DNA of 33,255 bases from a virus (lineage: Duplodnaviria > Heunggongvirae > Uroviricota > Caudoviricetes), in the IMG/VR virus record IMGVR_UViG_2737471834_000009; one strand, 5' to 3'. The notes under the pieces were generated by a model. It ran no database searches and was not told where the DNA came from. It worked only from the letters and a program-made list of their open reading frames with translations. Both the position numbers and the translations under genes were made by a program. Positions within the stretch are counted from its first letter, which is position 1. The number at the start of each line of letters is the position of its first letter. Below are positions 17,286 through 17,595 of the stretch, piece by piece.

Positions 17286-17361
17286 GGCCCTTTAGCTCAG
17301 TGGTGAGAGCGAGCGACTCATAATCGCCAGGTCGCTGGTTCAAATCCAGCAAGGGCCACCA
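17286..17361 (+). tRNA. tRNA, anticodon CAU (ileX/ileZ-like tRNA-Ile2; tRNA-Met not excluded)
   Basis: Manual cloverleaf: acceptor GGCCCTT/AAGGGCC, anticodon loop CTCATAA, T-loop TTCAAAT, CCA encoded; close to remembered ileX. Confidence 0.8.
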
Positions 17362-17362
17362 A

Positions 17363-17439
17363 CCGCCACTAGCTCATCAGGAAAGAGCGTCAACCCTTTA
17401 AGTTGAGTGTGCGAGGTTCGAGTCCCCGGTGGCGGTCCA
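17363..17439 (+). tRNA. atypical tRNA, anticodon loop CCTTTAA (anticodon UUU, Lys-like, with C at position 33)
   Basis: Manual cloverleaf: acceptor CCGCCAC/GTGGCGG (C1-G72), D-loop with GG, T-loop TTCGAGT, CCA encoded; isotype uncertain. Confidence 0.55.
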
Positions 17440-17441
17440 GT

Positions 17442-17517
17442 GCCGACTTAGCTCAGTAGGTAGAGCAACTGACTTGTAATCAGTAGGTCACCAGTTTGAT
17501 TCCGGTAGTCGGCACCA
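17442..17517 (+). tRNA. tRNA-Thr (anticodon UGU), thrU-like
   Basis: Acceptor GCCGACT/AGTCGGC, anticodon loop CTTGTAA, CCA encoded; near-identical to remembered E. coli tRNA-Thr(UGU). Confidence 0.8.
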
Positions 17518-17520
17518 TAT

Positions 17521-17595
17521 GCGGGCATCGTATAATAGCTATTACCTCAGCCTTCCAAGCTGATGATGCGGGTTCGATTCCCGCTGCCCGCTCCA
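17521..17595 (+). tRNA. tRNA-Gly (anticodon UCC), glyT-like
   Basis: Sequence GCGGGCATCGTATAAT.GCTATTACCTCAGCCTTCCAAGCTGATGATGCGGGTTCGATTCCCGCTGCCCGCTCCA matches remembered glyT; anticodon loop CTTCCAA. Confidence 0.85.

Follow-up and report, generated by a model that had tools for sequence, protein, structure and literature searches.

A tRNA gene with a UUU anticodon in a lambdoid Escherichia coli prophage derives from argN and may be decaying within its tRNA operon

Introduction

A block of four transfer RNA (tRNA) genes is carried by a stretch of viral DNA of 33,255 nucleotides (nt) (IMG/VR record IMGVR_UViG_2737471834_000009, Caudoviricetes), referred to here as the window. The window is a lambdoid, HK97- and Stx-like (Stx, Shiga toxin) prophage of Escherichia coli, and the block lies between Q/pR' and the lysis genes. 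The subject of this report is the second gene of the block, tRNA2, which combines a UUU anticodon with a cytidine at position 33. It is an argN-family tRNA and not a host-type tRNA-Lys, and it is best described as an argN derivative that arose via two transitions in the anticodon loop, U33C and C35U. To the reading that tRNA2 is a dispensable argN derivative, which has lost arginine decoding inside a working rare-codon tRNA operon, we give about an even chance. The evidence that carries this reading is the variation of tRNA2 among prophages. It has to be weighed against the intact fold and wide spread of the window allele, and against the alternatives that tRNA2 is a lysine decoder, a non-decoding but useful tRNA-shaped element, or a recoding tRNA.

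Sequence, Fold, and Origin of the Second tRNA

ARAGORN finds four tRNAs in the entire 33-kb window, all on the + strand within positions 17286-17595, and each of them exceeds the gathering score of the Rfam family RF00005 (29 bits) with a cloverleaf called (Table 1). The two methods give the same coordinates as the original prediction, a reading of the letters alone that had described four tRNAs 1-3 nt apart. Between successive genes lie A (1 nt), GU (2 nt), and UAU (3 nt), and the CCA end is gene-encoded in all four tRNAs. Neither a low score nor another fold was found for tRNA2, the outcome that had been named as fatal to its assignment, since the gene scores 44.4 bits, is called by ARAGORN, and has an identical allele that the prokaryotic genome annotation pipeline PGAP calls tRNA-Lys at the matching RefSeq position. 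The only mismatch is A51·C63. The C1-G72 pair, C33, the UUU anticodon, and the cloverleaf that had been reported for tRNA2 are all seen in the sequence, and the anticodon stem has 5 base pairs (bp). The claim that the four acceptor stems are identical was mistaken: each is 7 bp long, but their sequences differ (GGCCCUU, CCGCCAC, GCCGACU, and GCGGGCA).

The anticodon loop of tRNA2 reads C32-C33-U34-U35-U36-A37-A38 (CCUUUAA, positions 17395-17401) on a stem of UCAAC/GUUGA, and the discriminator base is U73. With C33, tRNA2 lacks the uridine of a canonical elongator tRNA, while it retains U8, A14, G18, G19, U54-U55-C56, and A58. The first 154 nt of the block are 92% identical to the ileZ-argN pair of many Stx phages, and tRNA2 itself shares 84-95% of alignment columns with Arg(UCU/UCG) alleles. 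C1-G72 and U73 are common to all members of the argN family, and the A51·C63 mismatch is common to the window and Stx argN. These features are no sign of decay because family members share them; C1-G72, which had been listed among the oddities of tRNA2, is thus real but a family trait. The loop is CUUCGAA in Stx2a argN (anticodon UCG), CUUCUAA in prophages such as UTAK-3 and DG343-1 (anticodon UCU), and CCUUUAA in the window (anticodon UUU with C33). An Arg-family body with a UUU anticodon is what an anticodon shift leaves behind. Four states set the UUU clade apart from the Arg alleles: A20a, G45, C33, and U35. The Arg alleles covary at positions 30-40 (A-U, G-C) and 3-70. Over 20 distinct alleles, 95% of the cells of the covariation table are paired, and double changes occur in only two pairs.

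No single-step intermediate, either U33 with UUU or C33 with UCU on an argN body, was found in IMG/VR, where both loop changes always occur together; three matches to the U33 plus UUU pattern were unrelated environmental phage tRNA-Lys genes. In a species-level scan of GTDB, the argN-like 3' half was found in E. coli, in Shigella flexneri, and as a decayed relic in Edwardsiella hoshinae, and in nothing else. The family is essentially confined to phages of E. coli and Shigella, and therefore offers no deep phylogeny to exploit. The E. hoshinae relic (L134:1226-1302, - strand) has an argN-like acceptor stem and T arm with a degenerate anticodon arm, lies beside a Gly(UCC) gene, and is reported by ARAGORN as tRNA-???. 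The minimum-energy fold of unmodified tRNA2 is not a cloverleaf (-25.0 kcal/mol), and the cloverleaf lies within about 1 kcal/mol of it. Folding energy is not informative here, as Stx argN likewise prefers a non-cloverleaf fold.

Expected Consequences of the Two Loop Changes

In the proposed model, the ancestral module of Ile(CAU), Arg(UCU), Thr(UGU), and Gly(UCC) would supply readers of AUA, AGA, ACA, and GGA, codons that E. coli uses rarely and the prophage's genes use in excess. The operon would be transcribed as one precursor, both from its own sigma-70-type promoter and by Q-antiterminated late transcription. RNase P would then cut each 5' end, and 3' exonucleases would trim the leftover 1-3 nt. 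In E. coli, C35 is the strongest identity element for arginyl-tRNA synthetase (ArgRS), and U35 together with the UUU anticodon provides the key determinants for lysyl-tRNA synthetase (LysRS). Loss of C35 would remove the main ArgRS identity nucleotide and with it the reading of AGA. C33 would remove the U-turn uridine that elongator tRNAs require on the ribosome; in bacterial tRNAs U33 is conserved and enforces the U-turn needed for ribosome binding (PMC13276492). With U33C and C35U combined, arginine identity should therefore go, lysine identity should be offered, and ribosomal function should weaken. If tRNA2 is aminoacylated at all, LysRS would be the expected enzyme, since it reads the UUU anticodon. 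In the window tRNA2 still folds and is probably still excised, and the selection that guards its neighbours would be gone from it. It would then be an early-stage pseudo-tRNA carried inside a working operon.

Variation and Decay of the argN Slot

Homologues of tRNA2 are present in 1,135 of 5,426 complete E. coli genomes, about a fifth, and 60 evenly spaced members of this set served as a RefSeq sample. PGAP annotates ileZ in all 60 rows of the sample. The 43 full-length copies of tRNA2 are annotated as Lys in 19 cases and as Arg in one, and 23 are left uncalled. The uncalled alleles carry U8C with C11U (with or without C4U and C2U), a deletion of U12 (ΔU12), or seven changes including G18A; ΔU12 alleles are those of E2348/69, O111, O145, and the prophage PPompW of O157. 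Lesioned alleles gave no Rfam match at E <= 0.01, while the Arg alleles score 53.7-56.7 bits, tRNA2 of the window 44.4 bits, and Stx argN 43.0 bits. Taken together, about half of the E. coli genomes with the UUU clade carry further lesions in it (U8C, ΔU12, or arm deletions) next to an intact ileZ, and in some UUU-clade copies the anticodon arm is wholly lost.

The same pattern is seen in 67 haplotypes from IMG/VR. Diversity is 0.027 in tRNA2, compared with 0.010 in ileZ and 0.011 in the Thr gene, and at homologous columns damaging variants of tRNA2 reach 10-15 of the 67 haplotypes, against at most 5 for variants of ileZ and Thr. The damaging variants occur in several flank backgrounds. Stem changes in tRNA2 are one-sided only, in contrast to a compensated change in the Gly gene. 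Purifying selection is thus weaker on tRNA2 than on its neighbour tRNAs, as expected of a pseudogene. Of the two options in the original prediction, a divergent tRNA whose decoding has changed and a pseudo-tRNA in decay, each keeps some probability, and the population data lean to a dispensable and decaying gene.

The first IMG/VR sample was chosen by a pattern in the 3' half of tRNA2, whereas a second sample of 98 clusters was anchored on ileZ and is free of ascertainment on that half. In 27 of these 98 clusters, no second tRNA can be detected, although an intact argO follows at its normal spacing. In a series of IMG/VR loci (L144-L2xx, for example L146:6036-6531), the second element has argN-like 5' and 3' ends around a different interior (...GAGCAGACGACACGATAACAGGGTTGTTGG...), and its T loop is destroyed. 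In these ileZ-argO clusters the argN slot has decayed or been remodelled independently. To judge from these comparisons, the slot is evidently expendable and has decayed more than once. One viral contig carries a differently built second tRNA (L111:726-807, - strand) of 82 nt, with a 6-bp AACAAC/GUUGUU anticodon stem and an ACCAGAU loop, which ARAGORN calls Leu CAG and which again has C at position 33.

Several observations weigh against the view that tRNA2 is a dispensable derivative. The window copy has a complete cloverleaf with an intact UUCGA T loop and a score like that of Stx argN. Its allele is the commonest one (63 of 131 IMG/VR hits) and looks ancestral; it occurs in seven upstream and seven downstream flank groups and is found in the phage records vB_EcoM-606R7 and vB_EcoS-689R5. 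Among clusters of the Ile-X-Thr-Gly architecture, 91 have the UUU form and 6 the Arg form, which is odd for a plain loss of function, and two changes within a 7-nt anticodon loop are unlikely to have arisen by chance. No change unique to the UUU clade breaks a stem, and positions 20a and 45 are free. Stem changes of the clade keep G·U pairing in 8 cases against 3, a difference that is not significant and may reflect a C-to-T bias.

A Possible Nuclease-Resistant Lysine Decoder

These observations would fit a working gene, and one alternative, which we regard as unlikely although it deserves serious attention, is that tRNA2 is a lysine tRNA by anticodon shift (UCU to UUU) and a tRNase-proof substitute for the host tRNA-Lys(UUU). 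LysRS would charge tRNA2 via its UUU anticodon, and the foreign stem and D loop would evade AriB of PARIS and P2 OLD. The operon promoter and replicating phage DNA would keep the decoding of AAA and AAG alive during abortive infection. The full version of this proposal adds that U33C protects against PrrC-like loop nucleases as well, which would make tRNA2 a natural C33 elongator; this we consider somewhat more doubtful again.

Part of the support comes from known cleavage rules. In E. coli tRNA-Lys, AriB cleaves at U36AAUC|A41 and requires U16 as well; the resistant tRNA-Lys of phage T5 has other nucleotides at positions 39, 41, and 16, and the single change U39A is enough to prevent cleavage by AriB (PMC12409363; PMC11464382). 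By sequence comparison, the AriB site is altered in tRNA2, which has U36AAGUU41 and C16. PrrC cleaves 3' of U33 in tRNA-Lys and, when overexpressed, in tRNA-Arg4(UCU) as well (PMC2610378), and C33 changes the nucleotide at the cleaved bond. With U36AAGUU41, C16, C33, and no CNG motif, tRNA2 would on paper escape AriB, OLD, and PrrC. The position of the gene is suggestive too. Lys(UUU), Thr(UGU), and Asn(GUU) are the main targets of AriB, and the slot downstream of Q in lambdoid phages carries such genes: Asn and Thr genes in SfI, phage 21, and Sf6 (PMC3636060), and the altered Lys gene with Thr here. OLD restricts lambda and HK97-like phages (bioRxiv 10.64898/2026.07.10.737580). A Lys gene cannot be explained by codon supply, as AAA is not rare. 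The cloverleaf of tRNA2 is intact, its allele predominates, and its changes are confined to the loop.

Other evidence counts against this alternative. A cytidine at position 33 is almost unknown in elongator tRNAs and is expected to weaken function in the A site. About half of the UUU-clade genomes carry further damaging lesions, and these have spread. The "resistant" features G39, U40, U41, and C16 are merely inherited from the Arg ancestor. The neighbouring tRNA3 should itself be cut by AriB and OLD because its anticodon arm is identical to that of host thrU, and host thrU gave little or no protection in the OLD study. The discriminator of tRNA2 is U73 and not the A73 of tRNA-Lys, no U33 plus UUU intermediate is present in IMG/VR, and no publication on tRNA2 was found.

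Less Likely Readings: A Non-Decoding Element or a Recoding tRNA

It is improbable, in our estimate, that tRNA2 no longer decodes and is kept as a tRNA-shaped element. Such an element could be a punctuation mark for processing, where RNase P cleavage at the 5' end of tRNA2 would make the 3' end of ileZ, or a decoy that would engage tRNases or modification enzymes specific for the Lys anticodon and survive the encounter. The spacers of 1 nt to ileZ and 2 nt to Thr leave no room for other processing sites, and pairing of the acceptor stem and T arm is kept in the alleles sampled, whose lesions fall on U8, the D arm, and the anticodon arm. Competition by viral tRNAs has been suggested as a possibility by the authors of the AriB work. 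However, the conservation of the 3' half is partly a matter of ascertainment, as the first IMG/VR sample was selected by a 3'-half pattern, and clusters in which the T arm of the second slot is wrecked still keep ileZ and argO.

A further proposal, that tRNA2 is still charged with arginine through A20 and its argN body but reads AAA and AAG, giving low-level Lys-to-Arg recoding, has very little to commend it: A20 and the body are retained and the replacement is conservative, but C35, the strongest ArgRS element, is lost and U35 is the strongest for LysRS, C33 should lower decoding whatever amino acid is attached, and the decay across genomes counts against this form as well.

The Neighbouring tRNAs and Codon Supply

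The first gene, tRNA1, is ileZ, of the tRNA-Ile2 type, and is a predicted reader of AUA after lysidine modification. It is annotated as tRNA-Ile by PGAP, is 100% identical to ileZ of the Stx2a phage F349, and is about 89-92% identical to the PGAP tRNA-Ile copies that lie outside this prophage module in E. coli. The phage ileZ allele is present at >=99% identity in 2,730 records. Its C4-G69 and C5-G68 pairs are what we take to be TilS determinants. All three neighbours of tRNA2 have U33.

The third gene, tRNA3, is a copy of host thrU, Thr(UGU), and a predicted reader of ACA, and tRNA4 a copy of host glyT, Gly(UCC), and a predicted reader of GGA. Together they are 98.7% identical to the host genes over 154 nt, with one substitution each. 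The description of three host-type tRNAs in the original prediction is thus correct for Thr and Gly and has to be qualified for tRNA1, which is the phage ileZ allele. In most prophages the Thr and Gly genes of the module are identical to thrU and glyT, whereas in the window tRNA3 carries C56U (position 17497) and tRNA4 carries G18A (position 17537). Both substitutions strike universally conserved nucleotides of the "elbow" between the D loop and T loop. The double haplotype occurs in 5 of 5,426 complete E. coli genomes, and none has a single variant. The 3-nt spacer UAU is the remainder after an exact 206-nt deletion, from thrU+1 to glyT-2 of the host and including tyrU, and homology to the host operon ends at the ends of the Thr and Gly genes. 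Because the spacer fits a deletion of tyrU and homology stops at the gene ends, the pair looks to have been captured from the host thrU-tyrU-glyT-thrT operon with a clean loss of tyrU. The tRNA4 family includes the compensated change of C6-G67 to U-A, the mark of a gene under structural selection. In the viral contig with the 82-nt second tRNA, the neighbouring Thr(UGU) gene (L111:648-723, - strand) has an anticodon stem rebuilt as GAUGA/UCAUC, by which half of the CNG motif of P2 OLD is removed.

In the open reading frames (ORFs) of the window, AUA is used 7.7 times per 1000 codons, AGA 8.1, AGG 6.1, ACA 13.9, and GGA 14.9 times, which is about 2-4 times the typical values of E. coli. A role in codon supply fits tRNA1, tRNA3, tRNA4, and the Arg form of tRNA2. 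It was rejected as the reason for tRNA2 itself, as AAA is not enriched (37.5 per 1000) while AGA and AGG still are. With AAA at an ordinary level and several tRNA-Lys(UUU) genes in E. coli itself, one more Lys(UUU) gene brings no gain in codon supply.

Prophage Context and Transcription Signals

An integrase lies at the left end of the window, and head genes of HK97 type and tail genes of lambda type lie at its right. The late region is 95% identical to that of a prophage adjoining yccA in E. coli strain QA-1986 630. The positions of the tRNAs and of the surrounding late-region features are listed in Table 1.

Table 1. The tRNA genes and flanking features of the prophage late region (window coordinates).
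Feature	Position	Strand	Evidence
Antiterminator Q gene	16380-17075	+	ORF; homologue in the 95% identical prophage annotated "bacteriophage antitermination protein Q"
pR'-like promoter match TTGCAA-17-TATATT at the end of Q	17059-17087	+	Consensus scan; role suggested by lambdoid late-region position
G+C-rich hairpin with T run, putative tR'-like terminator	17139-17167		Lies between Q and the tRNA promoter
Sigma-70-type promoter, -35 TTGCAA, 17-nt spacer, -10 TATTAT	17248-17276	+	Scan match; ends 9 nt before tRNA1
tRNA1, anticodon CAU	17286-17361	+	ARAGORN; Rfam RF00005, 72.5 bits
tRNA2, anticodon UUU	17363-17439	+	ARAGORN Lys(UUU); Rfam RF00005, 44.4 bits; PGAP tRNA-Lys
tRNA3, anticodon UGU	17442-17517	+	ARAGORN; Rfam RF00005, 71.2 bits
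tRNA4, anticodon UCC	17521-17595	+	ARAGORN; Rfam RF00005, 63.6 bits
Two perfect inverted repeats, 17602-17612/17637-17647 and 17655-17670/17712-17727	17602-17727	+	Downstream of tRNA4
Terminator-like hairpin with T run	17803-17826	+	Consensus scan
Holin gene, first of the lysis cassette	17888-18103	+	ORF; homologue annotated class II holin

There is good comparative evidence that the tRNA block is a self-promoted operon. Among the 67 IMG/VR haplotypes, five of the six positions of the -10 element are invariant and the sixth is >=95% conserved, and the first three bases of the -35 element (TTG) are kept in >=95%, with 22 variants in the promoter region. The spacer and flanks of the promoter vary freely, and the flanks are mosaic, with a haplotype diversity of 0.33-0.35. 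The identical promoter sequence precedes ileZ in an Stx2a phage. With its own promoter, the block could therefore be active both in the lysogen and in the late phase of infection. The suggestion that the four tRNAs are cut from a single polycistronic precursor, which had been drawn in part from the supposed identity of the stems, is plausible and is backed by this conserved promoter directly upstream and by the 1-3 nt spacers.

The tR'-like hairpin was listed by the scan on the - strand alone (17162-17139), and its T run follows it on the + strand sequence. The terminator-like hairpin downstream of the block is likely to be where the tRNA transcript ends in the absence of Q action. The two inverted repeats that separate tRNA4 from the holin gene have arms of 11 nt with 24 nt between them and arms of 16 nt with 41 nt between them, respectively, and neither gave a match in Rfam.

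Elsewhere in the window, Rfam identifies the small RNA DicF (4759-4810, - strand, 76.7 bits) and the sok antitoxin RNA of a hokD-type locus (13528-13702, + strand, 111.7 bits), and these mark the window as a Qin-like lambdoid prophage. A DUF968 protein encoded upstream of rusA (14965-16023, + strand) also has a putative HNH nuclease domain, HNHc_6 (E = 1.4e-7), and an ORF of 165 amino acids (11657-12154, + strand) resembles the Mom family weakly, below threshold. Ten mostly unannotated ORFs were scanned with Pfam, and no HEPN, Toprim, or PrrC-like domain was found that would point to a prophage-encoded tRNase against which tRNA2 might protect; the scan returned DUF1627, DUF977, DUF968/HNHc_6, a weak zinc ribbon, and the weak Mom-like match, and nothing else.

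Significance and Annotation

Phage tRNA genes are now being reinterpreted as countermeasures to PARIS, OLD, PrrC, Retron-Eco7, and HepS, and the window cluster carries Lys(UUU) and Thr(UGU) genes, the two main targets of PARIS. If tRNA2 works, it would demonstrate a cheap route to nuclease-proof tRNAs, in which an anticodon is swapped onto the body of another tRNA, and it would be a rare natural elongator tRNA without U33. If tRNA2 does not work, which we consider likelier, it would be a clean case of a tRNA gene dying in an operon whose other members stay selected.

Both the ileZ-argN-argO family and the Ile-Arg-Thr-Gly module are known, and the cluster is a variant of each; its genes are already annotated publicly, although inconsistently. 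PGAP calls the window allele of tRNA2 a tRNA-Lys (for example, in NZ_CP101920) and tRNA1 an Ile where other pipelines say Met. Two GenBank phage records (ON470580 and ON470583) list Met, Thr, and Gly and omit tRNA2, though its sequence there is identical to the window allele. PGAP thus reports a "tRNA-Lys" where other pipelines skip the identical sequence, and neither flags its descent from argN. A literature search on ileZ/argN/argO and on prophage Lys/Thr/Gly tRNA clusters, which did not extend to the original Stx-phage papers, returned nothing relevant, and no published description was found in it of the argN origin of the "tRNA-Lys", its C33, or its decay pattern.

Comparison with Known Systems

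The closest known relatives are the ileZ-argN-argO clusters of Stx phages of the 933W type (Stx2a_F349, AP012530), which occupy the same slot downstream of Q, begin with ileZ, and have the same promoter. The ileZ genes are 100% identical, ileZ and argN together are 92% identical, and argN shares C1-G72, U73, and A51·C63 with tRNA2. The second tRNA of the Stx cluster is an Arg tRNA (UCG or UCU), in contrast to UUU with C33 in the window. The third gene is argO, Arg(UCU), where the window has copies of thrU and glyT and no stx genes. The UUU variant also stands beside argO in other prophages (E2348/69, PPompW, and Evi). The Ile-Arg-Thr-Gly module of E. coli UTAK-3 (NZ_CP157160) has the same architecture and spacers and is 95.8% identical over 310 nt. 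Its second tRNA, with a canonical CUUCUAA loop and no mismatch in the T stem, reaches 53.7 bits, where that of the window has 44.4 bits. Its Thr and Gly genes do not differ from host thrU and glyT, in contrast to the window with its C56U and G18A.

The slot downstream of Q also holds the Asn(GUU) and Thr(UGU) pair of SfI, phage 21, Sf6, and ST64T, whose species overlap the targets of PARIS and OLD. These genes are unrelated in sequence to those of the window, and their anticodon stems have diverged strongly from the host, unlike the Thr gene of the window, which matches host thrU. In SfI (JX509734, L140:439-591), the Asn and Thr genes read U36AACCU41 and U36AAGCG41, without the UAAUC motif of AriB. 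For tRNAs of this kind in phages like SfI and phage 21, the published explanation by codon usage accounted for Thr and left Asn aside (PMC3636060).

Among tRNAs that act against PARIS, phage T5's tRNA-Lys(UUU) resembles tRNA2 in its UUU anticodon, its lack of the AriB site UAAUC|A, and its C16. No sign of homology between the two genes emerged, but none was specifically looked for. The T5 tRNA keeps the usual U33, and experiments have demonstrated its function, whereas tRNA2 has C33, is an Arg-tRNA derivative, and has related copies that are decaying. The change of anticodon in tRNA2 also recalls tRNA remolding, in which a point mutation in the anticodon changes identity, as for Thr and Arg tRNAs in E. 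coli and in mitochondria and eukaryotes. As in remolding, the anticodon class of tRNA2 was changed by one transition (C35U), and the body reveals the origin. Unlike the remolding cases, the shift in tRNA2 is coupled to the loss of U33, and its new identity is a predicted one.

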